Source: Alphaproteobacteria bacterium (GTDB taxonomy: Bacteria > Pseudomonadota > Alphaproteobacteria > SHVV01). Taken from it: a stretch of 64,000 nucleotides of DNA. Both the position numbers and the translations under genes were made by a program. This document shows positions 8,083-25,486 of the stretch, piece by piece (position 1 is the first letter of the stretch; the number at the start of each line of letters is the position of its first letter). The stretch covers positions 2,176,001-2,240,000 of the forward strand of contig OZ253470.1 of the NCBI GenBank assembly GCA_965261735.1, written 5' to 3'. Below the pieces are notes generated by a model. It was not told the origin of the DNA and ran no database searches. It was given only the letters and a program-made list of their open reading frames with translations.

Positions 8083-10225
8083 TCATGAGCCCGGCTCGGG
8101 CAGGCTCGGATAGGGCTTCAATCCAGCGGCCTCGCGATCCCTGAAGGCCACGTTGCCGCTCGCCTGCACCAAGCCGCCCACGCTCGGACTGCCGATGATC
8201 CGGTTGTTGCGGTAGACGATGGTGCCGAGGGCCTGCTCCTGGAAGATTTGGCCCGTCTTATCCAGCGGCCCGTCGAAGATGATTGTGTTGCCCTCGACGA
8301 TTGCGCCGTTGATCTCATGCAAACCCTTTTCGCGTTCCATCGACAGACCGATCAACCCCGCGTTGCCGCTGAACGGGCCCTTTTCGAGGACGTTGTTGCG
8401 GATCAGGACTTCGCCGCCAACCGGAATGTCGATCGCTCGGCTGTCGCGCCCGCCCAGTCCCGCGATGACGTTGTTTTCTATGACCGTGCGCCGGGCTCGG
8501 CTCTTGATGCCGTGCCCCTCGCCCTTCGTTCGCAGCACCGTGTTGTTGCGAAAGATCAACGTGTCCAAGCGGCTGCCGGCGTAGATGCTGCCGTGCGCGA
8601 AGCCGTCTTTGCCGTTGCGCTCGAATCTCGAGTTCTCGACGATCACCGTACCGCCGAAGCCGCCGAGGATGCCCTGTTCGCTATCGTGGAAGTAGACGTT
8701 GCGGACCACGAGCCCCTCCGCCTCGAGCTTGATACAGGAGCCGTTTCTATCTTTTACGGCGATACCCGAGCACTCGATCCCCTCGACGACGGTATCGTTG
8801 CCCTTGAGCACCAGCGCGCCCTTGCCCTGTGCGGCTGTGCCCATCAAGTGGGCGCCCGCCTCGCCTCTAATGGTGAGCCGATCCCGTCGCACGACGGCGG
8901 CCTGGCGGTAAACGCCCGGCGCGAGCACGATGACGCTTCCAGGTTCGGCGTCGTCGACGGCGCGCTGTAGAGATGTGTATCCACAGCCGGCCCCCGGCTC
9001 ATCCGGCGGGCATACGCGCAGCACGGCACCCTCGCCGCTCTTGCCCATGATCGCCCCCACCGAGGGTGGGGCGGTGGCGATGCGATTCGAACCGGCAGCC
9101 AAGGGCTCGTCGGGCATGCGGTACACCCAGACCCCCGAATCGACGCTGTTGACGCCAACGAAGACGTCGTGCGCAACCAGGTACACCCATTTGCTGTAGA
9201 CGGCGGCGTCGCGCCGCGGCGGCTTGGGACCCGAGGCGGCGCGGTCAAACAACGCGAGCTCCCAGGTCTCGGGATCGAGCGTGTAGACCTCCGGCGAGCC
9301 CGTCCACAGGACGAACTGCTTGCGGCCGCCATGATAGACGAGCGCCCAGCGGTACATGTCCTCGTGCGGTAATTCGTCGAGCACCGACTCGAAGGATTCC
9401 TAGGTTTTCACCATCGAGCTTGACGGTTCGCACACCGGAGGCGTCGTCGATCGCGACCAGCAGCCGGCGGCCCGCATCGATGGCGGCAACCCCGTTGGTG
9501 ACGAGTCGGGTCCGTGGCGAGCGCCGCGTGTACTGCTTCGCCGTGACATCGAACTCCCAGGCGTGGTTCTTCGTCGCGACGATGACGGCGCCGGTCGCGG
9601 GGTCGACCGAGGTTACGGCGCCCCACCGGCCCGGGTGCGCCGCCGCGTAGGTCCACGTGCGCTCTTGCGGCTCGAACTCCCAGACGCCGGCGCGCCCGCC
9701 GCCCCAGCCGTCGTGGCAATAGACGGGCGAGTGCCACACGAACAGGCTTTGCGTGAGCCGAGACCACACGACACCGTCGTTCGTCGCGCTTGCCGGGGGG
9801 CGATCCTCGTCCACCAGCCCGGCGCAGGATTTGCCCGCCGCCGGATCGCGAAGCCCTGTCGGCTCGGTGAGGCGCTCCCACGTCAGGCTTGCTAGATCGA
9901 AGGCGTAGACTTCATTGCCGCCATAGATTTTGGTGCCGCCGCCGTGAACGTACAAGCGACGGTCGTCGAATGCCGCACCGCTGTCGTCGAGAACGGCCGC
10001 CGGCCCCCGCGTACCGTGCGCGCCCTCCGGGACGGCGTCCGGCTTAACCAGCACTTGACGCATCTGCGTGTCGGGTATCTCGAACCACTCGCCCGGCGAC
10101 ACCCGAGCCGCAATCTCGGCGAGCCCCGCGAGCTCATCCGCGCTCGCGTCGGCGCCCGGCCGGACGGCCGACGATAGCCCGAGCGCGAGCGCCACGGCGA
10201 CGGTACAGATGGACCGCTTGTTCAT
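8083..10225 (-). pseudogene. Secreted Kelch-like beta-propeller plus right-handed beta-helix protein, frameshift near 9400
   Basis: Signal peptide MNKRSICTVAVALAL; HGGG..YGGNEVYAFDL..WERL propeller; second frame has SLQRAVD..LAPGVY and NVYFHDSEQGIL/IENSRFERNG/IENNVI beta-helix repeats. Confidence 0.7.
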
Positions 10226-10325
10226 GATCGAACTGGGATCAGTTTCGCGCGGCATTGAGGGCCATCAGCGGGGAGCGGACATGGAGCCAGCCTTGCCCGG
10301 TCCGCGCGCCTTCCAGGAACCGGCC

Positions 10326-11411
10326 CTAGATCGACGGGCCCTTGTCGCGCACCAGCGGGAGGGTCGAGCAGATCGGGCCGCGGCCGGCGATGCGGCCGCC
10401 CTCGAAGCCCATCTCGAAAACCTCGATGCCGCGCTTCTCGATCTGCTCGCGCGTCTTCGGGTTGCCTGCGGTCACGATCACCTTGCCGGGTTCGGTCGCG
10501 AGCAGGTTGCAGGCATAGTTCTGGCACTCGTCGAGCGGGACCTCGATCAAGTCGAGGTCCTTCTTCTTGAGGTAGCGCAACGTGTCGTAGCCGAGCCCGG
10601 CCGGGTAGACCACACCGAGCCCCTCGGCGACCATGCTGAAGACCATGTCGAGGTGGTAGAAGCCGCCGGCGCCCCCCGCGCGCTGGCTCCAGTTGTTCAA
10701 ATAGCCGGGCAGGTGGGCGACGTGGATTTCCTCGACCCCAGCCATGCGCAGGATCGGCTCGACCTCCGCGATCCCCTCCATGCTGGTGCGCAGCCCGCAG
10801 CCGATCATGACGTGCGTCTCGTCGAGCCAGACGACGTTGCCGGCCTCGAAGACCGAGCCCGGGCCATGGACCATGTAGAGAATCGGGCAGCCGATCTCCA
10901 TCAGCCGCTGCGCGTGCACCTTCTCGAGCCCACGCTTGGACGCTATGCCGGGGCGGCCGACGAGCGCGCCGCCGTTGAGGATGACGGGCTCGCGTGGGCC
11001 ATCAAGCGCGATCAGCTCGGTGTAAGTGCCGCGCACCGATTCGGGCGCGTTGAGCGAGACGACCTCGATCCCCTCGCGCTCCAGGATCGCCACAAGCGAC
11101 TCGTAGTTGCGGATCATCGCGCCGAGGTCGGGCAGCCCCGCCGGCCAGCCGAAGAAGGCGGGGTCCTCCGCGACGACGGGTGCCTGAATGGCACCCGAGG
11201 TGGGCTTTTGGACCATGACGGCGCGCAGGCGCCCGAGCTCGCTTTGCGCACCCCAGCGCCGCCCCCAGGTCGCCTCGAGCTCGTCCATGTAGTCGATGTC
11301 GAACAGGGGCTGCGGCGGCTTGCCCTTCTCGTAGAGCGGAATGCGGGCGAGCTCGTCCGCGGGCGAGAGGCGCGCTTCCCGGGCGACGGGCTCGATGGCT
11401 TCAACACTCAT
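10326..11411 (-). CDS. Pentein (amidinotransferase/arginine deiminase/DDAH-like) paralog 1
   Basis: SELGRLRAVMV, GPRE, FEAGN, LRTS, FYHLDM, YACN, GRGPICSTLPL with catalytic-type Cys. Confidence 0.88.
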   Translation of the reverse strand: MSVEAIEPVAREARLSPADELARIPLYEKGKPPQPLFDIDYMDELEATWGRRWGAQSELGRLRAVMVQKPTSGAIQAPVVAEDPAFFGWPAGLPDLGAMIRNYESLVAILEREGIEVVSLNAPESVRGTYTELIALDGPREPVILNGGALVGRPGIASKRGLEKVHAQRLMEIGCPILYMVHGPGSVFEAGNVVWLDETHVMIGCGLRTSMEGIAEVEPILRMAGVEEIHVAHLPGYLNNWSQRAGGAGGFYHLDMVFSMVAEGLGVVYPAGLGYDTLRYLKKKDLDLIEVPLDECQNYACNLLATEPGKVIVTAGNPKTREQIEKRGIEVFEMGFEGGRIAGRGPICSTLPLVRDKGPSI

Positions 11412-11437
11412 GGTCGTACTCCTTCGACTCGCGGCGC

Positions 11438-12535
11438 TCAGAGGGTCGGTCCGCTGTCGCGGATCAGCGGCAGGATCGAGCAATCCGGCCCGCGGCCGCT
11501 CACCTCGCCGCCCTCGAAGCTCATCTCGATCACCTCGATGCCGCGCTTCTCCAGCTGCTCGCGGGTGCGGTGGTTGCCGGGCGTCGCGATGATGCGGCCG
11601 GGGCGAATCGGGGTGACGTTGCAGGCGTAGTTCTGCGCCTCCTCGATCGGCACCTCGATGAGGTCGACGTTCATCTTCTTGAGGTAACGGATGGTGTCGT
11701 AGCCCACGCCCGCCGGGTAGATGACCGCGACTCCCTCATCGACCATGTTGAACACCATGTCGAGGTGGTAGAAGCCGCCCGGGCCGCCGGCGCGCTCGGT
11801 CTGGAAGTTGAGGTAGCCCGGCAGATGCGCGACGTGGAACTCCTCGATGCCGACCGAGCGCAGGACGGGGATGACCTCCTCGATGCCTTCCAAGCTGGTG
11901 CGCACGCTGCAGCCCAGGATGACGTGCGTCTCGTCGAGGAAGATCAGGTTGCCGCCGCCCTCGAAGGCCGAACCCTTGCCGTGCACCGTGTAGAGGATGG
12001 GGCAGCCGATCTCCATCAGGCGCTGCGCGATAATCTTGTTGATGTCGCGCTTGGACGCGATGGCGGTGCGGCCGATGAGCGCGCCGCCATTGAGGATGAT
12101 CGCCTCGTGCGGCGCATCGTGGCCGATGAGCTCGCTCGTATAGACGCCGGGGAGCGATTCGGGCGCGTTGAGGTAGAAGACCTCGACCCCTTCGTCGGCG
12201 AAGATCTTGACCAGCGACTCGTGGTTCTTGCGCATCGAGTCGATGTTGGGCAGGCCCTTGGGCCAGCCGAAATAGATCGGGTCCTCCCTGACGATCGGCG
12301 AGTCGACCTGGCCCCACGTCGGCGGCTGCAGCATAACAGCGCGGAGCTGGCCGATCTGGGTCTGGGCGCCCCACTTGCGGCCCCACGTCGCCTCGAGCTC
12401 GTCGAGGTAGTCGATGTCGAACAGCGGCTGCGGCGGTTTACCCTTCTCATAGTGCGGAATGCGGGCGAGCTCGTCCGCGGGCGACAGCCGGGCGGTGCCC
12501 GACGCCTTGGTTCTCGGCTTCTCGTCGATCGTCAT
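11438..12535 (-). CDS. Pentein paralog 2
   Basis: APHE, FEGGGN, VRTS, FYHLDM, GRGPDCSILPL. Confidence 0.88.
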   Translation of the reverse strand: MTIDEKPRTKASGTARLSPADELARIPHYEKGKPPQPLFDIDYLDELEATWGRKWGAQTQIGQLRAVMLQPPTWGQVDSPIVREDPIYFGWPKGLPNIDSMRKNHESLVKIFADEGVEVFYLNAPESLPGVYTSELIGHDAPHEAIILNGGALIGRTAIASKRDINKIIAQRLMEIGCPILYTVHGKGSAFEGGGNLIFLDETHVILGCSVRTSLEGIEEVIPVLRSVGIEEFHVAHLPGYLNFQTERAGGPGGFYHLDMVFNMVDEGVAVIYPAGVGYDTIRYLKKMNVDLIEVPIEEAQNYACNVTPIRPGRIIATPGNHRTREQLEKRGIEVIEMSFEGGEVSGRGPDCSILPLIRDSGPTL

Positions 12536-12571
12536 GGGGTTCTCCGCCGTGATGGGGTGGGACGCGAGCGA

Positions 12572-12598
12572 TTAGATAGAAGGTCCGCGGTCGCGCAC
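12572..12598 (-). repeat. Orphan duplicate of a pentein gene 3' end (VRDRGPSI*)
   Basis: Minus strand GTG CGC GAC CGC GGA CCT TCT ATC TAA, 2 bp downstream of the paralog 3 end GTC CGC GAC CGC GGA CCT TCG ATT TAA. Confidence 0.85.
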
Positions 12599-12600
12599 GC

Positions 12601-13689
12601 TTAAATCGAAGGTCCGCGGTCGCGGACCAGGGGTAGCGTCTTGCACACGGGCCCGCGGCCGCTCACGCGCCCGCCCTCGAACGCGACCTCGTGGACGTTA
12701 AGGCCGCGCTTCTCCAGTGCCGCGCGCGTGAGCGGATTGCCCTCGGTGAGGACGACCTCGCCGGGCTCGATCACCAAGAGATTGCAGGCGTAGTTCTGCA
12801 CCTCCTCGAGCGGCACCTCGATGAGGTCGAGGTCCTTCTTCTTGAGGTAACGGATGGTGTCGTAGCCGACTCCGGCGGGGTAGATGACGGCTAGTCCCTC
12901 GCCCGCCATGCCGAACACCATGTCGAGGTGGTAGAAGCCGCCGGGCCCGCCGGCACGCTCGGACTGCACATTGAGGTAGCCCGGCATGTGGGCGATGTGG
13001 ATCTCCTCGACGCCCGCCATGCGCAGCACGGGCTCGACCTCGCGGATGCCCTCCATGCCGGTGCGCACGCCGCAGCCGATCATGGCGTGGCGCTCGTCGA
13101 GCCACACGAGGTTGCCGGGTTCGAACAGCGAGCCCCTCACCATGTGGAGGATGGGGCAGCCGATCTCCATCAGGCGCTGGGCGATAAGCCTCTCGAGCCC
13201 GCGCTTGGACGCCGTCGCCGGCCGGCCGACGAGGGCGCCGCCGTTCAGCACCGTCGCCTCGCGGGTGCCGTCGATGCCGGTGAGCTCGGTATAGGCGCCC
13301 TTGATCGTCTCCGGCGAGTTCAGGTAGACGAGCTCGACGCCCGCGCCCTCGAGAATCGCCATCAGCGACTCGTGGTTGCGCATCATCGCGTCGAGATTGG
13401 CGAGCCCCTTGGGGAAGATGAAGAAGCCGGGGTCTTCCTTGATCACCGGCGAGGCGACCTGGCCCCAGGTCGGCGGCTGGACGAGAACGCTGCGCAGCTT
13501 GCCAAGCTCGGTCTGGGCGCCCCAGCGACGGCCCCATGTCGCCTCGAGCTCATCCATATAGTCGATGTCGAAGAGCGGCTGCGGCGGTTTGCCCTTTTCA
13601 TAAAGCGGGATGCGGGCGAGCTCGTCGGCGGGCGACAGCCGGGCTTTACCCGATTGCTTCGCCTTGGGCTCCTTCTCGTCGATGGTCAT
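12601..13689 (-). CDS. Pentein paralog 3
   Basis: GTRE, FEPGN, VRTG, FYHLDM, GRGPVCKTLPL. Confidence 0.88.
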   Translation of the reverse strand: MTIDEKEPKAKQSGKARLSPADELARIPLYEKGKPPQPLFDIDYMDELEATWGRRWGAQTELGKLRSVLVQPPTWGQVASPVIKEDPGFFIFPKGLANLDAMMRNHESLMAILEGAGVELVYLNSPETIKGAYTELTGIDGTREATVLNGGALVGRPATASKRGLERLIAQRLMEIGCPILHMVRGSLFEPGNLVWLDERHAMIGCGVRTGMEGIREVEPVLRMAGVEEIHIAHMPGYLNVQSERAGGPGGFYHLDMVFGMAGEGLAVIYPAGVGYDTIRYLKKKDLDLIEVPLEEVQNYACNLLVIEPGEVVLTEGNPLTRAALEKRGLNVHEVAFEGGRVSGRGPVCKTLPLVRDRGPSI

Positions 13690-13702
13690 GGTGCCCTCCG
13701 GT

Positions 13703-14791
13703 TCAGATCGACGGCCCCCTGTCGCGGACCAAGGGGAGCGTCGAGCAGGCGGGCCCGCGGCCGCTCACGTTGCCGCCCTCGAAGGCCATCTCCAGCACCT
13801 CGATGCCGCGCTTCTCGAGCCTCTCCCGGGTGCGCGGGCAACCCGCCGTCATGATGATGCGCCCGGGCCGAATGGCGCACACGTTGCACGCATAATTCTG
13901 CACCTCCTCGAGCGGCACCTCGATGAGCTCGATGTTCTTCTTCTGCAGGTAGCGGATCGTCTCGTAGCCGACGCCGGCCGGGTAGATCAGCGCCAGGCCC
14001 TCGGCCACCATGTTGAACACCATGTCGAGGTGATAGAAGCCGCCGGGACCGCCGGCGCGCTCGGTCTGGAAGTTCAAATAGCCGGGTAGCTGGGCGACGT
14101 GGAACTCCTCGACGCCGACCGAGCGGTAAATCGGAATGACCTCGTCGATGCCCTCCTGGCTCACGCGCACGCTGGTCGCCAGCATGACGTGCGTCTCGTC
14201 GAGCCACACCAGGTTGCCGCCGCTCTCGATGCCGGAGCCCTTGCCGTGCACGGTGTAGAGAATGGGGCAGCCGATTTCCATCAGCCGTTGGGCGAACAGC
14301 TTGTTGATGTCGCGCTTCGACGCAATGGCGGTGCGGCCGATAAGGGCGCCGCCGTCGAGGATGATGACCTCGCGCGGGGCGTCGTAGCCGATCAGCTCGG
14401 TATAGACGCCGCGCATCGAGTCGGGGGCGTTGGCGTCCACCACCTCGACACCCTCGTCCTCGAGGATCTTGACCAGCGACGCGTGATTGCGGTGCATGGC
14501 GTCGAGGTCGGGCAGGCCCTTGGGCAGGCTGAAGAAGACCGGGTCCTCCTTGACCACCGGCGAGGCCACCTGGCCCCAGGTGGTGCGCTGCACCATGACG
14601 CTACGCAATTGCCCGAGCTCGGTCTGCGCCCCCCAGCGCCGCCCCCAGGTCGCCTCGAGCTCGTCCATGTAGTCGATGTCGAACAGCGGCTGCGGCGGCT
14701 TGCCCTTCTCGTAGAGTGGGATGCGCGCGAGCTCTTCCGCGGGCGAGGGGCGCGCGCCCTCCTTCTCCCGCTTCTCACCCTTGGCCGTCAT
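13703..14791 (-). CDS. Pentein paralog 4
   Basis: APRE, IESGGN, VRVS, FYHLDM, GRGPACSTLPL. Confidence 0.88.
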   Translation of the reverse strand: MTAKGEKREKEGARPSPAEELARIPLYEKGKPPQPLFDIDYMDELEATWGRRWGAQTELGQLRSVMVQRTTWGQVASPVVKEDPVFFSLPKGLPDLDAMHRNHASLVKILEDEGVEVVDANAPDSMRGVYTELIGYDAPREVIILDGGALIGRTAIASKRDINKLFAQRLMEIGCPILYTVHGKGSGIESGGNLVWLDETHVMLATSVRVSQEGIDEVIPIYRSVGVEEFHVAQLPGYLNFQTERAGGPGGFYHLDMVFNMVAEGLALIYPAGVGYETIRYLQKKNIELIEVPLEEVQNYACNVCAIRPGRIIMTAGCPRTRERLEKRGIEVLEMAFEGGNVSGRGPACSTLPLVRDRGPSI

Positions 14792-14822
14792 AATCGGCCT
14801 CCCTTCGATGGCCCCGCATCCG

Positions 14823-15953
14823 TCAGATGGAGGGCCCCTTGTCGCGTATCAGGGGGAGCGTGGAGCAGGCCGGCCCGCGGCCACTCACCTTACCGCCCTC
14901 GAAGCTCATCTCCACCGTCTCGATGCCGCGCTTCTCCAACTGCTCGCGCGTGCGAGGATTGCCCGCCGTCACGATCAAGCGGCCCGGCCGCAGGGCGAGC
15001 ACGTTGCAGGCGTAGTTCTGCATCTCCTCGTAGGGCACCTCGATGAGGTCGAGGCCCTTCTTCTTGAGGTAGCGGACGGTGTCGTAGCCGACGCCCGCGG
15101 GATAGATCAGCGCCACCCCCTCGGCCGCCATGTTGAACACCATGTCGAGGTGGTAGAACCCACCAGGCCCGCCGGCGCGCTCGGTCCAATGGTTGAGGTA
15201 GCCCGGCAGGTGGGCGACGTGAATCTCCTCGACCCCGACCGAGTTCAGGATCGGGCTGATCTCCTCGATTCCTTCCATGCTGGTGCGAATGCTGGCGCCC
15301 AGCATGACGTGGGTTTCGTCGAGCCAGATCAGGTTGCCGCCGCCCTCGAAGGCGGAGCCCTTGCCGTGCATCGTGTACAGGATGGGGCAGCCGATCTCCA
15401 TCAGGCGCTGGGCCAGGATGCGCTCGATGCCACGCTTGGCGGCGACGGCGGGCCGGCCGATGAGCGCCCCACCGTTGGCGACCACGACTTCGCGCGGTCC
15501 GTCGTAGCCGTAAAGCACGGTGTAGGCGCCGCGCGCGAATTCCGGCGCGTTGAGGTAGATGACCTCGACCCCCTCCGCCTTCATCAGGTTGACGAGCGAT
15601 TCGTGGTTGCGCAGCATCGCGGCCATGTCGGGCAGGCCCTTGGGCCAGCCGAAGTAGATCGGGTCTTCAAGCACCACCGGGGACTCGACCGGGCCGCGCG
15701 TGATGGGCTGAACCATGACGCTGCGCAGGCGCCCGAGCTCGGTCTGGGCGCCCCACTTGCGCCCCCAGGTCGCCTCGAGCTCGTCCATATAGTCGATGTC
15801 GAACAGGGGCTGCGGCGGCTTGCCCTTCTCGTAGAGCGGGATGCGCGCGAGCTCCTCGGCCGGCGAGAGGCGTTTGGCCGTGGACTTGGATTTGGGTTCG
15901 GATTTGGGCTTGGACTTCGACCTGGCGGCTTGGCTTACGTCTTCGATAGCCAT
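14823..15953 (-). CDS. Pentein paralog 5 (Lys/Ser-rich N-terminal extension)
   Basis: SKSKPKSEPKSKSTAK leader; GPRE, FEGGGN, IRTS, FYHLDM, GRGPACSTLPL. Confidence 0.88.
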   Translation of the reverse strand: MAIEDVSQAARSKSKPKSEPKSKSTAKRLSPAEELARIPLYEKGKPPQPLFDIDYMDELEATWGRKWGAQTELGRLRSVMVQPITRGPVESPVVLEDPIYFGWPKGLPDMAAMLRNHESLVNLMKAEGVEVIYLNAPEFARGAYTVLYGYDGPREVVVANGGALIGRPAVAAKRGIERILAQRLMEIGCPILYTMHGKGSAFEGGGNLIWLDETHVMLGASIRTSMEGIEEISPILNSVGVEEIHVAHLPGYLNHWTERAGGPGGFYHLDMVFNMAAEGVALIYPAGVGYDTVRYLKKKGLDLIEVPYEEMQNYACNVLALRPGRLIVTAGNPRTREQLEKRGIETVEMSFEGGKVSGRGPACSTLPLIRDKGPSI

Positions 15954-16083
15954 CGCACTTCTCCCTCACTGCGGCCGGCGCGGTGCCACGGGGGCCCGTC
16001 GCCGATCCCGCGCATCGTCTTGGTCTACAGCGTCGGGGGTGAGGCCCGCGCCTCCTTCGGCGCCACCTCACCCCCCAGGACAG

Positions 16084-17097
16084 CTACATCATACCGAGGT
16101 CTTTGATGACTTCGTCGACGAGCGAGCGATCGACGATCTCCTCATACGTGATCGGCCGCGAGATCGCGCCGAGGCTGTGGTAGGTCTTGGACGAGAACTC
16201 CGTCACCTCGCGCCCGAGCCCACCATTGGTGCCCCAGACCCCCTGATCGTTGAGGGAGGGGATGATCTGTTTGATCAGAGCCATGTCGACGGTGGGTGTC
16301 CGATTCTTCATGATTTCCGCGGCTTTGTCGGGGTCCTTCTGGATCAGCCGCACGCCCTCGATTCCGCCTCTGACGAAGATCTTGAGAGACTTGCGAAGGG
16401 CGGGATCGGCGACACTCTTCTTGGTCGCGACCGAGTAGAGGTACCCGAGGCCGGGGAACTCCTTGGCGATCGAGGCGACCTCGATCAAACCCTGCTGCAT
16501 GCCGATGGCCGTGAAGAAGGTGTCGACCATCGTCACCTCGACCTTCTTCGCCACCACCGCCTGCATGCGCGAGCTCATGCCACCGACGGACAGGAACGTG
16601 GCGTCCCTCGGATCGAGCCCGTACTTACGCATGACCATCTTGGGGATTTCGGCCGACATGCCGCCGGTGCTGAACGAGGCCCATTTCTTGTCGCCCAGGT
16701 CCTTGATCGAGCTGCCGACCTCGGGCCGGGTGATGACGTGGTAATCGGTGACCGGCTGCCATGACGAGATAACCGTGACCGGCGCGCCCTTGATAATTCC
16801 GTTCATCACTGTGTTGGGGCCGAGGACCGTGACATCGGCGTCGCCCGCAATCAGGACGCGCAGGGAGTTGGCGTCACCGGTGACGACCTTCTCCTCGACC
16901 TCCAAACCCCACTCCTTGTACCAGCCGAGGTCCTGGGCAACGAAGAACGGAAGCAGGTACGTCGCCGGGCCCGTCGGCATGACAAAGCGGAGCTTGTCGG
17001 CGGCGGCCGCTGGTCCGGCGCCGGCCACCACCATCATCACGGCGGCGAGGGCGAGGCCCGCCACGAGTCGAGTCGCAAAGCTTCTCAGACGTGTCAT
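16084..17097 (-). CDS. ABC transporter substrate-binding protein, NMT1/THI5/SsuA/TauA-like
   Basis: Signal peptide; LPFFVAQDLGWYKEWGLEVE, LIAGDADV, SIKDLGDK, EEIVDRSLVDEV. Confidence 0.88.
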   Translation of the reverse strand: MTRLRSFATRLVAGLALAAVMMVVAGAGPAAAADKLRFVMPTGPATYLLPFFVAQDLGWYKEWGLEVEEKVVTGDANSLRVLIAGDADVTVLGPNTVMNGIIKGAPVTVISSWQPVTDYHVITRPEVGSSIKDLGDKKWASFSTGGMSAEIPKMVMRKYGLDPRDATFLSVGGMSSRMQAVVAKKVEVTMVDTFFTAIGMQQGLIEVASIAKEFPGLGYLYSVATKKSVADPALRKSLKIFVRGGIEGVRLIQKDPDKAAEIMKNRTPTVDMALIKQIIPSLNDQGVWGTNGGLGREVTEFSSKTYHSLGAISRPITYEEIVDRSLVDEVIKDLGMM

Positions 17098-17269
17098 TAA
17101 GAGTCCTCCCGTTAGGCTCGTTCGGCCGGCGGCCGATGCGCCATTTCTAATTGTGCGTCGCCGCGTTCTCGTGGCGGCGCCAAAACCGTCATCTCGGACA
17201 CAGTGAGCGGATGATCAGTTGGTCAACCTTACCCGCATTGCAACCCGGCGTCACCCCGCCGCGCTGGCC

Positions 17270-18517
17270 TCAGGAGAGAAACGCCTCCTCGAAGGGAAAC
17301 TTGGTCAGGATCTCGACGCCCCCCTCGGTGACCAGGACCTGTTCCTCGAGCTTGACGCCCTCGCGCCCGCCCTCGGCGCCGATATAGCTCTCGATGCACA
17401 GGACCATGTTCTCCTCGATAAGCCCGTCGTACCCGGACGCGTCCCAGTCCTGCAGGTGATAGATCGCGGGATACTCGTCGCACATGCCGACCCCGTGGGC
17501 GACGACCGAATAGCGGTTGGCCTCATATCCCTTCGGGTAGGTCCACGCCTTGTCCGCGACCTCGCGAAAGCTCGTGCCGGGCTTGATCAGCGCCAGGTTG
17601 TGGGCGAGCTCGTCCAAAGCCAGCTTGTAGAGGTCGCGCTGTGCCGTGCTCGGCTTGCCGGGGCCGCAGTAGAAGGTGCGCGAGACGTCGGCGCAGTAGC
17701 CGAACGGCCCGATCATGTCGGTATCGAACGCGACGAGCTCACCGGCGCGTATGACCCGGTCGCTGCATTCCTGCTGCCACGGGTTGGTGCGGTCGCCGGA
17801 CGCGAACAGGCGGCCGTCGATCCAGTCGCCGCCCATGGCGATGTTGGTCTGATGCAGGAGCGCCCATAGCTCGTTCTCGGTCACGCCCGGCCTCAGGGCC
17901 TCGCGCATGCGGGCGATGCCCACTTCGGCGGCTGCGATGGAGAAGTTCATGCACAGGATTTCCTCCGCCGACTTGATGGCGCGCGCATGCTCGAGCGGCT
18001 CCTGGGCGTCGACCATCTCGAGGCCGCGCTCGGCGAGCAGGGCTGGCGTCCTGAGGTCGTGGCGGTCGACGGCGAGGCGCCGGTTGCCGCCGCAGTGGCT
18101 CGCCACCAGCTCGGCGACCGTATCGGCCCAACGGCCGAGCAGCTCTTCGACCCGTGGTCCGGCGAAAAAGAAGTTGAGCGGCAGCGAGGGGCGGAACTCG
18201 GCGATGGTTTCGTTCTGCTTGGACGCCTGCCGCTCGGGATGCGAATCGAAGACGAAGACCGGTCCCTCGGCCGGAACGAACGCGTAGCGGCCGAGCATGT
18301 GGAGCTGGAACACGGGGTGATTGCGGGCGCCCGTCGCATAGCGGACGTTGACCGGATCGAACAGGACACAGGCGCCGTAGTCGCGCGCTATAAGCTGCTC
18401 GCGCACGCGCGCCAGCCGGTGGGCGCGCAGCGCCACCATGTCGATCCCGGCCTCGATATCGGATGCGCGATTGATCGGAGTCGTCGCCGCGGCGCGGAGG
18501 ATGTCGGCTTCGGGCAT
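17270..18517 (-). CDS. M24 family metallo-enzyme (Xaa-Pro peptidase / DddP-like)
   Basis: LFDPVNVRYATG, FDTDMIGPFGYCADVSRT, HGVGMCDEYP, CIESYIG, GVKLEEQVLVT (D/D/D/H/E/E metal ligands). Confidence 0.88.
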   Translation of the reverse strand: MPEADILRAAATTPINRASDIEAGIDMVALRAHRLARVREQLIARDYGACVLFDPVNVRYATGARNHPVFQLHMLGRYAFVPAEGPVFVFDSHPERQASKQNETIAEFRPSLPLNFFFAGPRVEELLGRWADTVAELVASHCGGNRRLAVDRHDLRTPALLAERGLEMVDAQEPLEHARAIKSAEEILCMNFSIAAAEVGIARMREALRPGVTENELWALLHQTNIAMGGDWIDGRLFASGDRTNPWQQECSDRVIRAGELVAFDTDMIGPFGYCADVSRTFYCGPGKPSTAQRDLYKLALDELAHNLALIKPGTSFREVADKAWTYPKGYEANRYSVVAHGVGMCDEYPAIYHLQDWDASGYDGLIEENMVLCIESYIGAEGGREGVKLEEQVLVTEGGVEILTKFPFEEAFLS

Positions 18518-18698
18518 GGCGTGCCTCCCTGGCGTGCGTTGCCGTTGTCGGATGCGGGGGTCGCTTCCGAGGTGTCTCGCCTTATCGCACATTTCCCGGC
18601 GCGCGGCGTGCACCGGAGCGCGGACCGCAGGAATCGCCTTTTTCGCGGCCCCGTACCGACATAGGATGAGGAAAAGGTAGTGGAGGAAGGACAAACCC

Positions 18699-19784
18699 AT
18701 GACGACGACAGAGGTCAGGCTGGCGCGGCGCGAGGACGAGCTGTCCCCCGCGCAGGAACTCGAGCGCATTCCGCTCTACGAGAAGGGCAAGCCGCCGCAA
18801 CCGCTCTTCGATATCGACTATATGGACGAGCTCGAGGCGACGTGGGGCCGCAAGTGGGGCGCCCAGACGGAGCTCGGACAGCTTCGCGCGGTCATGATGC
18901 AGCCGCCGACGATGGGGCAGACCGACACGCCCCTGTACCGCGAGGATCCGGTCTACTTCATGTGGCCCAAGGGCGTGCCCGACTTCGAGGCGATGAAGCG
19001 CAACCACCAGTCGCTGGCCGATCTCCTCAAGGGCGAGGGTGTCGAAATCGTCTACCTCAACGCGCCCGATGCCGTGCGCGGTACCTACACCTTCATCAAG
19101 GGCTACGATGCACCGCGCGAGCCGGTGATCCTGAACGGCGGCGCGCTCGTCTGCCGCAACGCCATCGGGCCGCAGCGCGGCATCAACAAGCTCATCGCGA
19201 CCCGCCTGATGGAGATCGGCTGCCCCATCCTGTACATGGCCCACGGCAAGGGTTCGTCGATCACCGGCGGCAATTTCGTCTGGCTCGACGAGCGTCACGT
19301 GATGATCGGGTGCAGCGTGCACACGAGCATGGAAGGCATCGAGGAGGTCACGCCAATCCTGCACAGGGCGGGCGTCGAGGAGATTCACGTGGCGCACATG
19401 CCGGGTTATCTCAACCAGATGACCGAGCGCGCCGGGGGTGCCGGGGGCTTCTACCACCTCGACATGATCTTCCAGATGGTCGACCAGGGCGTGGCCGTGA
19501 TCTACCCGGCGGGCGTCGGCTACGACACCATCCGCTACCTCAAGAAGCGGAACATCGATCTCATCGAGATTCCGCTCGAGGAGGTGCAGAACTATGCCTG
19601 CAACCTGCTGCCGATCCGGCCCGGGCGCGTGGTGCTGACCGCCGGCAACCCGCGCACCCGCGAGGCGCTGGAGAAGCGCGGAGTCGAGGTTCTCGAGATG
19701 ACGTTCGACGGCGGCCGCCTGAGCGGCCGTGGACCCGTGTGCTCGACCTTACCGCTGGTGCGTGACGTGGGTCCGTCGATCTGA
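18699..19784 (+). CDS. Pentein paralog 6 (divergent operon)
   Basis: Same N-terminal arm; APRE, ITGGN (no Glu), VHTS (no Arg), FYHLDM, GRGPVCSTLPL. Confidence 0.88.
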   Translation: MTTTEVRLARREDELSPAQELERIPLYEKGKPPQPLFDIDYMDELEATWGRKWGAQTELGQLRAVMMQPPTMGQTDTPLYREDPVYFMWPKGVPDFEAMKRNHQSLADLLKGEGVEIVYLNAPDAVRGTYTFIKGYDAPREPVILNGGALVCRNAIGPQRGINKLIATRLMEIGCPILYMAHGKGSSITGGNFVWLDERHVMIGCSVHTSMEGIEEVTPILHRAGVEEIHVAHMPGYLNQMTERAGGAGGFYHLDMIFQMVDQGVAVIYPAGVGYDTIRYLKKRNIDLIEIPLEEVQNYACNLLPIRPGRVVLTAGNPRTREALEKRGVEVLEMTFDGGRLSGRGPVCSTLPLVRDVGPSI

Positions 19785-19862
19785 AGCTCTCGCAAGGTGA
19801 GGGCGACCAAGACCGGCGCGGCCCGTTCGCTGGGCCGCGCCCCACGGGGGAGCGCTACGGCC

Positions 19863-20648
19863 ATGAAGGGTGTCATCAACTACGTCTTCGAGCGACCCAC
19901 GGCCCACCGCACGATCGTCGTCATCATCTTTTTCATCTTCTGGGAGTGGGCCGCGCGCAACGCCAATCCGCTCTTCATCTCCTATCCGACGGCGATCTTT
20001 GTCGCGTTCTGGGAGCTGCTGCTCAACGGCGAGCTCATCCGGGCGTTCCTCGCCAGCATGGTGCCGTTCGCGATCGGCATGGCGATCTCCATCGCCGGCG
20101 GCATCGCCCTCGGTGTCGTCATCGGGCAGTGGTGGTTCTTCGAGCGCACGCTCGATCCCTTCGTCAACGCGCTCTACGCGATCCCTCGGGTCGCGCTGGT
20201 ACCGCTCATCATGCTGTGGGCCGGCCTGGAAACCACGGGCAAGGTCACGATTCTGGTGTCCATCGCCATCTTTCCGGTCCTCATCAACACCTACTCCGGC
20301 ATCAAGGACGTGCGCGGCTCCTTCCTCGAGATCGGCAAGGCCTTCGGCGCCACGGAACGCGAGATCTTCGTCAAGATCACGATGCCGGCGGCGGTTCCCT
20401 TCGTCATGGCCGGCATCCGCATGTCGGTCGGGCTCGCCATCATCGGCATGGTCGTCGCCGAGTTCTTCACCGCCATCACCGGGCTCGGCGGTATGATCGT
20501 CGAATACGCTAACGTCTTTGCCACCGACAGGCTGTTCGTGCCGATCATCCTCATCGGCCTCATGGGCGTCGGCCTGACCGAGCTGGTGATGTACATCGAG
20601 CGCCGGCTCTCGAAGTGGCGCACCCTCGAGCGCGACCGCATCGGGTAG
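19863..20648 (+). CDS. ABC transporter permease, NitT/TauT (SsuC/TauC) type
   Basis: YAIPRVALVPL, INTYSGI, EIGKAFGA EAA-like loop, VVAEFF..GLGG. Confidence 0.92.
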   Translation: MKGVINYVFERPTAHRTIVVIIFFIFWEWAARNANPLFISYPTAIFVAFWELLLNGELIRAFLASMVPFAIGMAISIAGGIALGVVIGQWWFFERTLDPFVNALYAIPRVALVPLIMLWAGLETTGKVTILVSIAIFPVLINTYSGIKDVRGSFLEIGKAFGATEREIFVKITMPAAVPFVMAGIRMSVGLAIIGMVVAEFFTAITGLGGMIVEYANVFATDRLFVPIILIGLMGVGLTELVMYIERRLSKWRTLERDRIG

Positions 20649-20666
20649 CAAGGCGACGCGCCGGAC

Positions 20667-21125
20667 CTACAGGATCGTCGAGGGCGAGAACTCGAGGCGC
20701 CGCGTGTCCATGCGCACCGTGCGCTCGGCGAGCCGCGGCGCCGCGCCATCCAGCGCTATGTCATCGTGGTAGGTGACCACGGCAAAGAGGCGGCTCGTCC
20801 CTTGCGGATCGGTGTGATAGACGATCACCGAGCTCTCCATCCTCACCCGCGCCTCTGAGCGCTCGATCTCCCGGCAGCGGCCGGCGTGGCGGCGGTAAGT
20901 ACCGGGCACGACGAGGTGGCGCGGCAGGTCCTCGAAGCGGACGCGAAGCTGCTCCAGGCTCTGGTCGAGCCACACCATCTCCTTGCCGATCTCGTCGCTG
21001 TAGGCGGTGATGCGGTAGCGGAAGTCGGGCGCGCACAGGCCGAGCCAGGACTCGTAGGCCTCGGCGTCGAGGAGGGCGCAGGAGGCGTAGACGAGGTCGA
21101 CCAGCGCGGCCCGATCGGTGCTCAC
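20667..21125 (-). CDS. Ring-hydroxylating oxygenase beta subunit (MsmB-like, NTF2 fold)
   Basis: GTG start overlapping the alpha stop; LLDAEAYESWL, YRITAYSDEIGKEMVWLD, RTVRMDTR. Confidence 0.8.
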   Translation of the reverse strand: MSTDRAALVDLVYASCALLDAEAYESWLGLCAPDFRYRITAYSDEIGKEMVWLDQSLEQLRVRFEDLPRHLVVPGTYRRHAGRCREIERSEARVRMESSVIVYHTDPQGTSRLFAVVTYHDDIALDGAAPRLAERTVRMDTRRLEFSPSTIL

Positions 21126-22330
21126 GCCGCCCCCGCGGCCCCCGCGGCGGCGAGCGGATCGCGCGCCGAGCGTCCCATGCGGCGCTCCCACTCGGCGTAG
21201 TACTGGCGCAGGTTGGCCTCGTCGTGGGCCATCAGGTTTTCCTCGCGCGCGATCACGCTGTAGCTCGCGCTGCCGTAGGTCGCCTCCTGCTGGATAATGG
21301 CGGCGGCGTTGTCCTCGGGCACGTTCCAGCCGAAGGGCCCCCACAGCGTGTTGTGGTCGTTGTAGCGGGCGAGGCGCGCCGCCTCGGGCTCGCCCTTGAC
21401 GCCGATGCCGCGAAACTGCACCAGTGTCCGATCGACGCCGTGCGGCGTCATGGTGTCGATGCGCATGGCCGAATCGCGCATGATCATCGCCGTGTCGGGC
21501 CACACGTCGACGACTCGGAACTCGCGCGGCCCGAGCCCCGGCAGCGGCACTCCTTCGCGCTCCTTCTTCCAGCCCGGCTGGGCGTCGTACTGAACGATCA
21601 GGGGCCCGAGCAGCGTCGCGTGCCCGCGCCGGTAGAACTTCCAGGTGCGCTCGTGGTAGCCGGCCGCGCGGATGGTCTGGCGGCGATTAATGCTGTGCAT
21701 GAACGCGTGGTAGGACTCGCAGTTCACCTCCTGCAGGTGCTTCCAGTTCGCGTCCACGATCTGCTCGTGATAGTGGTAGACCTCGAGCGGCTCGGTGCCG
21801 AGAACAGCGGCCGCGTTCTCCAGCCCATCGCCCAGGAAATCATCGATGGGTTCGGCGTCATCGTCGAAATTGATGAACACCAGGCCCAGGCGTACCGCCG
21901 TCCGGATCTCGCGCAGGCCCATGTCCTCGGCGCGGCAGCCGGCGCTCTCGTAGGCTTCGTTGCGCGTCATCGAGACGCAGTTCCCTTGCGCATCGTACAC
22001 CCATAGGTGGAACACGCAGGTGAAGCGCGTGGCGTTCCCGTGCAGGCCCTGGACGACCTTGGCGCCGCGGTGCGAGCAGGTGTTCTGGAAGGTGCGCACC
22101 GCGCCGTCCTCGCCGCGCACGACCAGGATGGGAATGCGCGCTACCTCCATCGTGCGGTAGTCGCCGGGCTCGGCGACCTCGCTCTCGTGACAGACGAACT
22201 TCCACACCTTGTGCCAGATGTTCTCGATTTCCGCCTCGAAGATCGACTCGTCGGTGTAGATGCGATTGTCGAGGAAGTGGGTGGGGGGAAGCTGCGGGGC
22301 GCGCTCCCACTCCCGGGCCGTGCGCGACAT
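21122..22330 (-). CDS. Rieske oxygenase alpha subunit (MsmA-like)
   Basis: CSH-X17-CVFH Rieske motif; NWK..ESYHAFMH and a C-terminal ED for the mononuclear iron. Confidence 0.9.
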   Translation of the reverse strand: MSRTAREWERAPQLPPTHFLDNRIYTDESIFEAEIENIWHKVWKFVCHESEVAEPGDYRTMEVARIPILVVRGEDGAVRTFQNTCSHRGAKVVQGLHGNATRFTCVFHLWVYDAQGNCVSMTRNEAYESAGCRAEDMGLREIRTAVRLGLVFINFDDDAEPIDDFLGDGLENAAAVLGTEPLEVYHYHEQIVDANWKHLQEVNCESYHAFMHSINRRQTIRAAGYHERTWKFYRRGHATLLGPLIVQYDAQPGWKKEREGVPLPGLGPREFRVVDVWPDTAMIMRDSAMRIDTMTPHGVDRTLVQFRGIGVKGEPEAARLARYNDHNTLWGPFGWNVPEDNAAAIIQQEATYGSASYSVIAREENLMAHDEANLRQYYAEWERRMGRSARDPLAAAGAAGAA

Positions 22331-22502
22331 GCCTGGTCCCTCCCTGAAGGCGCGGCATCGAGCCGCCGGCAGATGGAGAAATCCTAGCCCTTAAGGCGGC
22401 CCGCCTCAAACGCCAAGGTGACACTGTACGATCGCGTTAGGCCGAAGACGCGACGATGACATGGTATTGTGCGCTGACACCCGTCCAAACCGGGAGAGAA
22501 AC

Positions 22503-23036
22503 ATGAAGGGCGCGGAGTTCATCCTCGATACCTTCGAGCGCAACAAGGCGGCGCTGCACCGGGAGTTCGAGGACATTACGCCCGGCGAACTTGCGTCCGA
22601 GCCCCATCCCTCGATCACCTGGCTCGCGTGGCATCTGGTGCGGGTACAGGACGTCGAGATGGCGAAGCTCGCGGGGCGCTGCCAGACGTGGATCGTCGAT
22701 GGCTGGCACGACAGGTTCGGTATGCCGTCCGACCCGCAGGACTACGGGCCGGCGCACACTCAGACGCGCGCACAGGTAAGTGCGCTCCAGGCGGAAGCGT
22801 CATTACTACTCGCCTACCACGATACGGTACACGGGCGTAGCGCCGAGTTCCTTGCCGGGCTCAGCGACGACGATCTCGACCGCGTGCTCGACGAGCCGCG
22901 CTTCCAGCCGCTGCCCACGGTGGGCGTCCGCCTCGTGAGCGTGATCAACGACAACATCCAGCACGTCGGCCAGATCATGTACCAGAAGGCGTGCCTCCGG
23001 GCCGGCGGCTGGTTCCCCAACCCGCGGCCGGCCTGA
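22503..23036 (+). CDS. DinB-family (thiol transferase-like) protein
   Basis: SITWLAWHLVRVQD ... TVGVRLVSVINDNIQHVGQ. Confidence 0.85.
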   Translation: MKGAEFILDTFERNKAALHREFEDITPGELASEPHPSITWLAWHLVRVQDVEMAKLAGRCQTWIVDGWHDRFGMPSDPQDYGPAHTQTRAQVSALQAEASLLLAYHDTVHGRSAEFLAGLSDDDLDRVLDEPRFQPLPTVGVRLVSVINDNIQHVGQIMYQKACLRAGGWFPNPRPA

Positions 23037-23066
23037 AACGATCAAGAACCCGCCGGGAGGTCGCCG

Positions 23067-23333
23067 ATGCCCTTGCTCCGTAGCCTGCTGATGCGCGCCG
23101 CCCTGCGGATCGCCTCCGATCCGCGCGTTCAGGCCAAGGCGGCAGAGGTCTACGACGGCGAGGTCAAGCCGCGCGCCGAGGCCGCCTGGTCGCGCGCCAA
23201 GCCCAAGCTTGCAGCTGCCAAGGCGGAGCTGCGCGAGGTGGCCCGCGAAGCCGACCCGCGAGGACGAGCCCGCGAGCTCGCCCGGAAGCTAAAGCGGCGC
23301 CTCGACGAGGGAACGGGCCCCAAGGATCGCTGA
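23067..23333 (+). CDS. Small hypothetical coiled protein
   Basis: 88-aa ORF, GC3-rich codons, GGGAGG SD. Confidence 0.6.
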   Translation: MPLLRSLLMRAALRIASDPRVQAKAAEVYDGEVKPRAEAAWSRAKPKLAAAKAELREVAREADPRGRARELARKLKRRLDEGTGPKDR

Positions 23334-23543
23334 TCTCGTGGGCGAGGAACGGCGCCGCCGCGACGCCCCGCCAGTGATTGCGGTCGCGCATTCCGACCGA
23401 TGAGACGCATGTGGCCCGTTCAGGGCTTGAGGTGGCGCCGCAAACCGCACGCCGTCCCCGTGCGGACACCGATGAAGACGCGTAGTAAGGTGATCCCCCA
23501 AATGCTGTCGGTGCAGGCGGTATTGACGAGAGCGGGGCACACG

Positions 23544-23926
23544 ATGAAACGGTACATATTGATGGCGGCAATAGCGTCCGCGGTAGGCTTGTTGGCGCCT
23601 CAAACCACTGCGGCGGACGAATTCGCATTTGATTTCGAATGGGGGGACATCTCCCTATGTACCACCGGGTATCCGAATCGAGTAACGAACCCGATCTTTT
23701 CAATGTTGGCTGTGCCCGCCGGCACACCGACCTCGATGCACCCAATTACAACCACGGTGGCGGGCGCGTAGCGTACTCGGGTCAACAAACCATTCAGCCG
23801 GGTGCGTTTAAGTACGACAGCCCATGCCCGCCCAACGGCCAACATAGGTATCGCTGGACCGCGCGTGCGAGAGACAAGGACGGCAAGACGCTCGCCAGAA
23901 CCAACGCAATGAAGAAATACCCGTGA
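23544..23926 (+). pseudogene. Secreted PEBP/YbhB-like protein with an internal deletion/frameshift near 23725
   Basis: Signal peptide ...VPAGT, then another frame DLDAPNYNHGGG..YDSPCPPNGQHRYRWT. Confidence 0.7.
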
Positions 23927-24550
23927 TCGGCGAGGCTGGGCGCGTCGCTCCCAATCCCGATGTTTGTTTCTTGCCTATCCGGTTAACGCCCATGACCGCT
24001 ACATGTAGGGTGCCACCACTCTCCCGAGTAAAGCTCGGCATAGGTTGGAGCAGAGGTGTCGCCCGCGATGCCGAGCAATGAGCGGAAGGCGTTGAACGGG
24101 TAGAACCGCCTGTTGAAGCGGAAGGTGAACTCGTTGAGGTAGGCTTGTAGGTGCTGGTGGCTAACGCCGTGGTGGATACCGATCAGCCACGTCTTCAGGT
24201 TGGCGAAAACCAGATGGATGATCGGCAGGTATTGCTCGGCAACCTCTGGATCACCACACTCGGCAACAGCGAAGTGCTCATAGCCGCGCTTACCGAGGCC
24301 AGCATAGCCGCTCCAATCGTCAGTAACGATCAGCGATCGCGGCGCGACGGTGCTCTCGACGAACCCACAGAGCGACTCGGCGCTACGGTCGAGCACGACG
24401 GCGAGCCGAACGCGTCCGGCATAGCGTCCGTCTTTCCGGTTGTCGAGCTTGGTGCCCGGCTTTCGATGACGCACCTCGATGGCACAGGTGAGGTGGCCTC
24501 GGTTTGTCGGACAGCTTGGCGGCTTGATTAAGGTGTATTCCAGTTGTCGT

Positions 24551-25486
24551 TCATGCCGCCAGAATCCCTTTGCATCGATCTCCTTGCCGTTGTTGTTGCG
24601 CCTGTGGGGATGTGGGCAAGGCGCGTAGCGGCTTGTCCATCATATCCACAGGCGGGGCGCCGCGGTAGGCCTCGGCCGGCGTTTCCCCCCCGAGCGCCGA
24701 GTGCGGCCTCTCGGTGTTGTAGAAGTCGATCCACTCGCCGATGACGCGCCGGGCCTCGAAGCCGTCGGCGAGCTCGCGCAGATAGACGGCCTCGTATTTG
24801 AGCGAGCGCCACAGCCGCTCAATGAAGATGTTGTCCAGGCACCGGCCCCTGCCGTCCATCGAGATCCGGATGCCGGTCTCCCGCAAGCGCCCGGTGAAGG
24901 CGAAGCCGGTGAACTGGCTGCCCTGGTCGGTATTGAAGATCTCCGGCGTGCCATGGCGGGCCAGCGCCTCGTCGAGCGCGTCTGTGCAGAAGCCCGCATC
25001 CAGGGTGTTCGACAGACGCCAAGCCAGCACATGCCGGTTGGCCCAGTCCATGATCGCCACCAGGTAAAGAAAGCCGCGCCGCACCGGGATGTAGGTGATG
25101 TCGGCGCACCAGACATGGTTCGCCCGCTCGATCGTCAAGCCTCTGAGCAGATAGGGGTAGACCCGGTGCTCGGGATGCGGATCGCTGGTGCGCGGCGCCC
25201 GATAGATCGCCTGAAGCCCCATCAGGCGCATCAGACGACCGGCCCGGCGACGACCGACGCGCACGCCCTCGCGGCGTAGATGACGGACCATCTGACGGGC
25301 GCCGTAGAACGGATACTTCAGGAACAACTCATCAATGCGCCGCATCAGCGCCAGGGTCTCCGGGCTCTCGCCCTTGGGCGTGTAATAGAGCGAGGAGCGT
25401 CCGATCGACAGCAAACGGCATTGACGGCTCAAGCTCAGCGCCGGGTGAGCGCGTATCACCATCGTTCGCCTCTCGGCCCGGCTCAT
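24551..25486 (-). CDS. IS3 transposase OrfB (DDE)
   Basis: WCADITYIP, IFNTDQGSQF, DNIFIERLWRSLKYE. Confidence 0.95.
   Translation of the reverse strand: MSRAERRTMVIRAHPALSLSRQCRLLSIGRSSLYYTPKGESPETLALMRRIDELFLKYPFYGARQMVRHLRREGVRVGRRRAGRLMRLMGLQAIYRAPRTSDPHPEHRVYPYLLRGLTIERANHVWCADITYIPVRRGFLYLVAIMDWANRHVLAWRLSNTLDAGFCTDALDEALARHGTPEIFNTDQGSQFTGFAFTGRLRETGIRISMDGRGRCLDNIFIERLWRSLKYEAVYLRELADGFEARRVIGEWIDFYNTERPHSALGGETPAEAYRGAPPVDMMDKPLRALPTSPQAQQQRQGDRCKGILAA

Follow-up and report, generated by a model that had tools for sequence, protein, structure and literature searches.

Why should one bacterial locus keep six intact copies of a single hydrolase-like protein next to parts of an importer? 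The question is raised by a 64,000-nucleotide window from an Alphaproteobacteria bacterium of the SHVV01 lineage (assembly GCA_965261735.1, contig OZ253470.1, forward-strand positions 2,176,001 to 2,240,000), where positions 10,326 to 23,036 encode six paralogous penteins (P1 to P6), the substrate-binding protein (SBP) and permease of an ATP-binding cassette (ABC) transporter, and several other enzymes. The source genome, here G000, is one contig of 5.03 Mb. We found that the six proteins belong to an uncharacterised subfamily related to NnhA, the 2-nitroimidazole nitrohydrolase that degrades the antibiotic azomycin, and that this subfamily forms a six-member array with its own importer and includes a conserved form lacking the triad glutamate. 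On balance we favour the reading that the six penteins act in the cytoplasm as a panel of C-N hydrolases on related guanidino or amidino compounds brought in by the importer. The functional unit would comprise these genes (positions are those of the window):

10326 to 11411, minus strand: pentein P1, 361 aa; PF02274; E141, K159, E189, R208, H253, D255, N302 and C348
11438 to 12535, minus strand: pentein P2, 365 aa; the first pocket loop carries a type-specific insertion of one residue, and Asp precedes the catalytic Cys
12601 to 13689, minus strand: pentein P3, 362 aa; PF02274 and motifs
13703 to 14791, minus strand: pentein P4, 362 aa; PF02274 and motifs
14823 to 15953, minus strand: pentein P5, 376 aa; PF02274 and motifs
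16084 to 17097, minus strand: SBP of NMT1/THI5-SsuA fold with a signal-like N-terminal segment; conserved partner of the pentein clade
18699 to 19784, plus strand: pentein P6, 361 aa; Q159, T189 and H208 in place of K, E and R
19863 to 20648, plus strand: ABC permease of the SsuC/TauC/NtrB class; the locus lacks an ATPase gene

The layout is the one given by the original prediction, in which five diverged paralogs of about 360 residues lie in tandem behind the SBP and an M24 gene, the sixth is divergent together with the permease, and a Rieske pair and a DinB gene are adjacent. On the minus strand the order is M24, SBP, P5, P4, P3, P2, P1, with gaps of 13-65 nt between penteins; P6 and the permease are on the plus strand, divergent from the P1-P5 unit, and the Rieske pair (alpha subunit RieA, beta subunit RieB) converges on the permease. 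All locus genes are full-length and without internal stops. The six paralogs are 68-76% identical in amino acids and 73-80% in nucleotides; given this nucleotide divergence assembly collapse or artefact was rejected, and the same 90% clusters are present on other contigs. In one database protein (P0361, 685 aa) P2 and P1 are fused; the other paralogs on its 7,145-base contig are truncated, and assembly frameshifts are the probable cause.

Pentein chemistry had been predicted from an HLD...GxGPxC signature, and it is supported for all six proteins, each of which exceeds the Pfam cut-off of PF02274 (41-69 bits vs 22.8), carries the HLD and GRGPxC motifs and has H253, D255, N302 and C348 or equivalents mapping on their counterparts in arginine deiminase (ADI). 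The top PDB match by sequence profile was NnhA (E 2.4e-27; runner-up 7.5e-8). A structure model of P6 (pLDDT 94) gave a Foldseek TM score of 0.81 to NnhA, compared with at most 0.68 for ADI and 0.61-0.64 for AGAT, SxtG and StrB1; among the top matches listed, all were penteins (alpha/beta propeller). In an ADI-rooted tree of 172 sequences, P1-P6 and an annotated NnhA fell into two sister subclades within a long-arm group of 118 members; support is 0.95 and 0.92 for these subclades, and the node that joins them carries no support value. The closest characterised relative is NnhA, not arginine deiminase or DDAH, the families that the original prediction had named. ADI membership was rejected on NCBIfam scores (45-68 bits vs 414; 38-64 vs 489) and on the lack of the five-helix inserted domain described in the available text of PMC3474736, the profile alignment being gapped opposite ADI residues 86-155 or so. 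DDAH membership was rejected likewise (at most 37.8 bits vs cut-offs of 300-450), with Asp in all six penteins at the position (NnhA D262) where DDAH has Lys.

NnhA (Mycobacterium sp. JS330; PDB 9AZG; PMC11659421, available text) resembles the penteins here in its alpha/beta propeller, long N-terminal arm and lid, lack of the ADI helical domain, arm-swapped dimer (modelled here) and common long-arm clade; equivalents of its H260, D262, N311 and C357 occur in all six and of its E197 in five. It differs at W149, M168, S216 and K356, where the six have E, K (Q), R (H) and variable residues, and in being one gene, whereas here six copies, of predicted activity, stand with an ABC importer. Identity to the annotated NnhA of locus L014 is 24-28%, below the line of >50% for close homologs in the available text of PMC11659421. 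ADI of the ArcA type (PF02274, TIGR01078) has in common, as aligned with P1-P5, the Cys-His-Glu triad, two guanidinium-binding acids and two putative basic anion-binding positions; it differs in score (at most 68 bits here vs 414 and 489) and helical domain, in Asp to Glu and Arg to Lys changes, in the residue for the alpha-amine, and in the absence of arcB and arcC from the locus. DDAH (NF045658-60) has the core fold in common, and several homologs are auto-labelled DDAH in databases, but the penteins here score at most 38 bits against 300-450, are about 100 aa longer and keep Asp where DDAH has Lys for the dimethylamino group.

According to the available text of PMC11659421, NnhA clusters with uncharacterised proteins whose activity is hard to predict; a term search of that text found no use of paralog, operon or gene cluster, and its supplementary network tables may include relatives of these penteins. 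ESM Atlas matches were unnamed ADI/DDAH-family clusters only, and a plasmid search with P3 returned only 23-35% matches. No description of the pentein clade or cluster was found in the literature searched, subscription papers being largely outside that search; in agreement with the original prediction, no characterised equivalent of the locus came up in these searches. A second pentein group (L004, L005, L015-L032), in a clade with NnhA itself (0.98), is expanded in the order, often as tandem pairs to fours; it adjoins varied importers, Rieske and molybdo-enzymes, and some of its members also replace the triad Glu or the anion anchors.

Active-site residues were mapped with a deep profile aligned to nine ADIs, residue roles being taken from the available text of PMC3474736 and PMC11659421. 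In P6, E141 corresponds to the first guanidinium-binding Asp of ADI, Q159 and H208 to the two carboxylate-binding Arg, and T189 to the triad Glu. P1-P5 carry E141, K159, E189 and R208, where NnhA has W, M, E and S; the assignment of K159/R208 in P1-P5 and Q159/H208 in P6 to the ADI carboxylate-binding pair is by alignment only. The hydrophobic pocket of NnhA (W149, M168, F146) and its nitro-binding K356 are replaced by E, K/Q, A/G and I/D/V/A, and at the position used by ADI and DDAH for the alpha-amine all six penteins carry Gly or Ala. P1-P5 have the triad Glu, as do 91 of the 102 family members aligned; its place is taken by Thr in P6 and by Thr or Ser in P6 orthologs, and P6 and its orthologs P0007, P0009 and P0244 have three changes in common (K to Q, E to T/S, R to H). 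Because P1-P5 keep Lys159 and Arg208 and have Gly or Ala at the alpha-amine site, they are most likely hydrolases of guanidino or amidino acids (carboxylate or sulfonate) without an alpha-amine. As P6 lacks both anion anchors and the triad Glu, its predicted substrate is probably a congener with an uncharged rather than an anionic tail.

The paralogs proved to be under purifying selection, as the original prediction had supposed from their intactness. By the Nei-Gojobori method dN/dS was 0.24-0.45 among the 15 paralog pairs, an upper estimate at a GC3 of 0.90-0.94, and 0.09 for P6 against its ortholog in locus L002 of genome G001. In G001 (98% complete) and G004 (97%) P6 stands alone, no other type having been found there, and together with the dN/dS of 0.09 this means that P6 is a working protein by itself. 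The 49 pocket-loop columns differed by 37% in the 15 paralog pairs and by 8% in four same-type pairs, in keeping with the predicted panel of specificity variants; the other columns differed by 30% among paralogs and 15% within types. This pocket pattern was matched by 34 of 5000 random block sets (p 0.007), and differences fixed by type occupy 19 of 49 pocket columns and 40 of 252 others. Read from the alignments, the pattern is one of fixed, type-specific function. The types also appear to be old: in the tree P1 groups with JGI and Logan metagenome homologs, and the P2, P3, P5 and P6 types recur elsewhere at 81-88% identity. A recent lineage-specific tandem burst is rejected by this tree, though several deep nodes are weak (0.06-0.46), and on these sequences the pentein types predate the species. 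The longest contigs of three of these homologs and of one SBP are equal (15,754), which suggests a second species with a pentein array; such metagenome co-occurrence is read from equal contig sizes, most metagenome neighbourhoods not being readable as gene order.

What ties the penteins to import is the SBP, a recurrent neighbour of this pentein clade. In L002 the SBP (67% identity), P6 (85%) and the permease (72%) keep the same divergent layout, the SBP lying 167 nt from the pentein, without M24, P1-P5, the RieA/RieB pair or DinB. A metagenome contig (L013) has two SBPs of the same clade directly upstream of a P1-like pentein, and in L001 an SBP of the clade lies 6.3 kb from the pentein. The clade thus occurs within 7 kb at both orthologous pentein loci, and at none of the 22 loci whose NnhA-like penteins are more distant, and co-occurrence is further inferred from SBP and pentein clusters with equal contig sizes (5458 and 2478). 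The proposed linkage to an NMT1-type importer was supported in this way, and ABC uptake stood in part: SBP and permease are present, but the locus showed neither an ABC ATPase nor a Rieske reductase, a ferredoxin or a regulator. Two identical ATPases elsewhere in the genome, each beside a 73%-identical permease paralog, are likely partners of the locus permease, judging from these neighbours. Membership of the SBP in the TauA/SsuA sulfonate-binding family was rejected, since it scores 34 against a TIGR01728 cut-off of 163.5 and thiamin/aminopyrimidine binders rank level with or above SsuA/TauA. A plasmid search with the SBP found nothing.

Paralogous SBP/permease clusters lie elsewhere in G000 (L009, L010, L008 and L011, at about 0.64, 4.2, 2.59 and 3.09 Mb) and in relatives (L039-L042). 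These conserved clusters hold as many as five heme-oxygenase-like diiron enzymes in an array (PF14518; closest PDB entry CADD/4-aminobenzoate synthase, E 4e-11) with extradiol-dioxygenase-like, alpha/beta hydrolase and aldo-keto reductase genes, and are possibly a separate undescribed catabolic system. The transporter and diiron-enzyme genes at 2.587/3.086 Mb and 0.64/4.2 Mb are identical or near-identical distant pairs adjoining insertion sequence (IS) elements, that is, recent segmental duplications.

NnhA-like penteins occur in six of the eight genomes of the order (3-12 matches each; 12 in G000 at E up to 1e-15). Across the class 20 of 401 genomes match at 1e-25, and only G000, G001 and G004 do so better than 1e-70. 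Three short contigs of a metatranscriptome labelled sponge metagenome match the SBP with 0, 0 and 1 differences, and a sponge habitat of the host is therefore likely. Contigs from RNA libraries cover the SBP in all three RNA runs, along with parts of P3, P5 and P6; P1 and DinB have little or no cover, and cover cannot rank genes. Sponges are rich in guanidino compounds.

From these genes, residues, selection and linkage, which are observed, we infer catalysis, substrate class and direction by analogy with ADI, DDAH and NnhA. The SBP and permease, borrowing an ATPase from the paralogous transporter clusters, would import related small guanidino or amidino compounds. The amidine carbon would be held by Glu141 and Asp255 and attacked by Cys348; ammonia or an amine would leave, and water activated by His253 would free a ureido (or cyclic urea) product. 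Six different pockets would make up the panel, P1-P5 for guanidino or amidino acids and P6 for the congener with an uncharged tail, in subunits modelled as NnhA-like arm-swapped dimers. As substrates of such a panel, cyclic guanidines (2-aminoimidazole acids, for example) are somewhat less likely than guanidino carboxylates or sulfonates with an open chain, N-methylated forms included.

Several points weigh against a panel of hydrolases. The alignments behind the residue roles are at 17-28% identity and used no coordinates, and the first pocket loop was placed only by the deep profile, a single-profile alignment having misplaced it. The limits of the pocket blocks were set after viewing the alignments, and only four same-type pairs entered the comparison. 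At 19 first-shell positions P1-P5 are nearly alike, differing mainly at 143, 146, 250 and 356 (NnhA numbering) and in the loops, and may therefore have broadly overlapping substrate ranges. Binders of thiamin, aminopyrimidine, sulfonate, PQQ and nitrate match the SBP model about equally well, all at no more than 18% identity, and the SBP fold thus gives no indication of a ligand; SBP paralogs (37-47%) adjoin quite different enzymes. The RNA runs consist of contigs alone and could contain DNA, and no guanidine riboswitch or other Rfam match was found in 9000-24000 at E up to 0.1. Catalytic activity, substrate and ligand of the penteins are themselves predictions.

The rest of the locus bears on the alternatives:

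17270 to 18517, minus strand: DddP-like M24 metalloenzyme, 415 aa; under the DddP cut-off, unlinked to penteins in relatives
20667 to 21125, minus strand: Rieske oxygenase beta subunit (RieB), 152 aa; family match
21122 to 22330, minus strand: Rieske oxygenase alpha subunit (RieA); short-spacer CxH-X17-CxxH, MsmA-like family; probably outside the pentein unit
22503 to 23036, plus strand: DinB/mycothiol-transferase-like protein; unlinked to penteins in relatives

Neither of the two sulfur-associated identities proposed for these enzymes survived. DddP (NF043017; PDB 4B28, 4RZY) is the best family and PDB match of the M24 protein over its full length (E 1e-83), but the score of 354.6 lies under the cut-off of 600, and a 66% paralog of M24, like 2-4 homologs in some relatives, lies away from these penteins. 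RieA belongs to a Rieske alpha/beta pair as in MsmAB, and one 40% relative is auto-annotated MsmA; the spacer of RieA is 17 residues, whereas the MsmA hallmark is CxH-X26-CxxH and a short spacer marks a non-MSAMO protein (PMC4433239, available text), and MsmC and MsmD are absent here. All 53 full-length Rieske alpha genes of G000 have 16- or 17-residue spacers, with eight beta-subunit matches in the genome. Related short-spacer MsmA-like genes on plasmids (L033, L044, L045, L046), which stand with sulfite/sulfate exporters and aldehyde-handling genes, suggest an uncharacterised organosulfonate oxygenase family.

Could all these genes form one guanidino-sulfonate pathway, in which a taurocyamine-like compound is imported, de-amidinated by the penteins and desulfonated by RieAB, with M24 and DinB taking further steps? 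K159 and R208 could hold a sulfonate, a sulfite/sulfate exporter gene adjoins four of the five best plasmid relatives of RieA examined, a 49% RieAB pair in G005 stands beside the same SBP/permease clade without a pentein, and in G004 a 48% Rieske alpha gene lies about 3 kb from a distant pentein. Nevertheless, none of the five regions with the closest RieA homologs (55-61%) contains a pentein, G002 has RieA without a pentein match, and homologs of M24 and DinB lie on other contigs in G001, as does that of M24 in G004. The locus has no exporter, as it has no reductase or ferredoxin, and the taurocyamine passages available in PMC6429109 name annelids and others, not sponges. We give this pathway little credence: the sulfonate idea keeps some support, from the plasmid relatives, for RieAB alone, and M24, DinB and RieAB, placed in one pathway with the penteins by the original prediction, are probably chance neighbours from the same catabolic toolbox rather than fixed steps. 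A second alternative takes its cue from NnhA, the nearest characterised protein and a member of the same long-arm clade (118 of the 172 sequences), and has a non-amine group (nitro, halide, sulfonate or thioether) displaced from C2 of an imidazole or similar host heterocycle, after which Rieske or molybdo-enzymes open the ring. A Rieske alpha gene lies within 5 kb at at least 8 of 24 NnhA-like pentein loci of the order, compared with 8% of G000 genes, the count being a lower bound since the profile missed some that Pfam found and the background coming from G000 only; molybdenum hydroxylases and flavin monooxygenases are often near NnhA-like penteins, as near an annotated nnhA. These loci are kin rather than independent, however, and the relatives are richer in Rieske genes than G000. 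The replaced NnhA pocket (W149, M168, S216 and K356 giving way to E, K/Q, R/H and small or acidic residues), an acid at 141 that favours a cationic amidinium, and the low identity to NnhA further make ring displacement improbable. Oxygenases may act downstream of penteins in general, RieAB not being a fixed partner, since Rieske alpha genes are common near pentein loci and RieA homologs lie apart from penteins; next to their P6 orthologs, L001 and L002 have Rieske genes that share 57-59% identity with one another and 33-36% with RieA.

The copies themselves might instead be six subunits of one NnhA-like ring, an obligate hetero-oligomer in which the Glu-less P6 is structural or regulatory. NnhA is a hexamer of domain-swapped dimers (PMC11659421, available text), and the P6:P5 pair was modelled as an arm-swapped dimer (score 0.87 vs 0.00 for the best control, above a threshold that 51 of 78 solved complexes and 2 of 108 mismatched pairs pass) in which residues 17-49 pack on the partner, with at least 94% of contacts in agreement between runs and a partner pLDDT of at least 88. 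Since a like complex has been solved, this score reflects likeness to NnhA rather than binding and does not separate hetero- from homodimer. The 26 interface residues of the arm differ by 3% among paralogs against 21% to other metagenome homologs; yet the arm is also conserved in single-copy orthologs (7% against P1-P5, 12% between orthologs). Gene conversion was rejected as the source of the near-invariant arm because its synonymous divergence (0.43-0.52) equals that of the rest of the gene. P6 alone under strong selection in G001 and G004, its transcription divergent from P1-P5, and the Cys, His, Asp and Asn kept by all six make an obligate assembly a poor prospect, although mixed oligomers are possible in the modelled structure, if not required. 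That the paralogs are redundant dosage copies diverging under relaxed selection would fit their dN/dS, which is above that of P6 against its ortholog, and the other recent duplications in the genome; it is very unlikely in view of differences concentrated in the pocket loops and fixed by type, and of types older than the species. Amidinotransferases or tailoring enzymes that build guanidino compounds would have the same fold and Cys-His-Asp core, and AGAT, SxtG and StrB1 did appear in the fold search, but at TM scores well below that of NnhA, and the genes linked to the penteins encode importers, none of them being biosynthetic; we hold this to be hardly credible.

A panel of importer-fed C-N hydrolases is thus the reading we retain. 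A bolder version is that sponge-dwelling bacteria use this clade, and the wider NnhA-like group expanded in the order, to remove nitrogen from guanidines and cyclic amidines of the host (such as 2-aminoimidazole acids or guanidino acids with N-methyl groups), that this is the natural chemistry behind the antibiotic-cleaving activity of NnhA, that P6 works with a Cys-His dyad and no triad Glu and that the arm lets six pockets mix in one ring; we consider it speculative and unlikely, though not far-fetched. The locus provides six naturally occurring versions of the pocket in one scaffold, a cognate SBP that could reveal the ligand class, and a conserved Glu-less variant. Through it a reaction could be assigned to an uncharacterised part of the superfamily, the origin of hydrolytic denitration shown, and the nitrogen compounds taken up by a sponge-associated bacterium named. 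It is an enzyme-discovery lead rather than a new kind of system.

Some minor features of the window were also recorded. A promoter and terminator scan of the locus gave results at chance level. In the SBP-P5 interval (15971-15985), contigs of runs X1, X4 and X14 have loose ends, pointing to an extra segment in other strains or to short chance matches; a search of G000 for the loose-end motif near 15985 gave no match. The broken genes to the right of the locus are mostly IS elements and their fragments; at 23983-29701 transposases of the IS1595, IS3 and mutator types, some of them split, cluster with a sortase-like fragment. To the left, at 8083-10225, Kelch-like and beta-helix open reading frames overlap, one base out of frame; in a contig from run X14 one base is missing at 9397, so that the two are probably one gene, broken in the strain or in the assembly.

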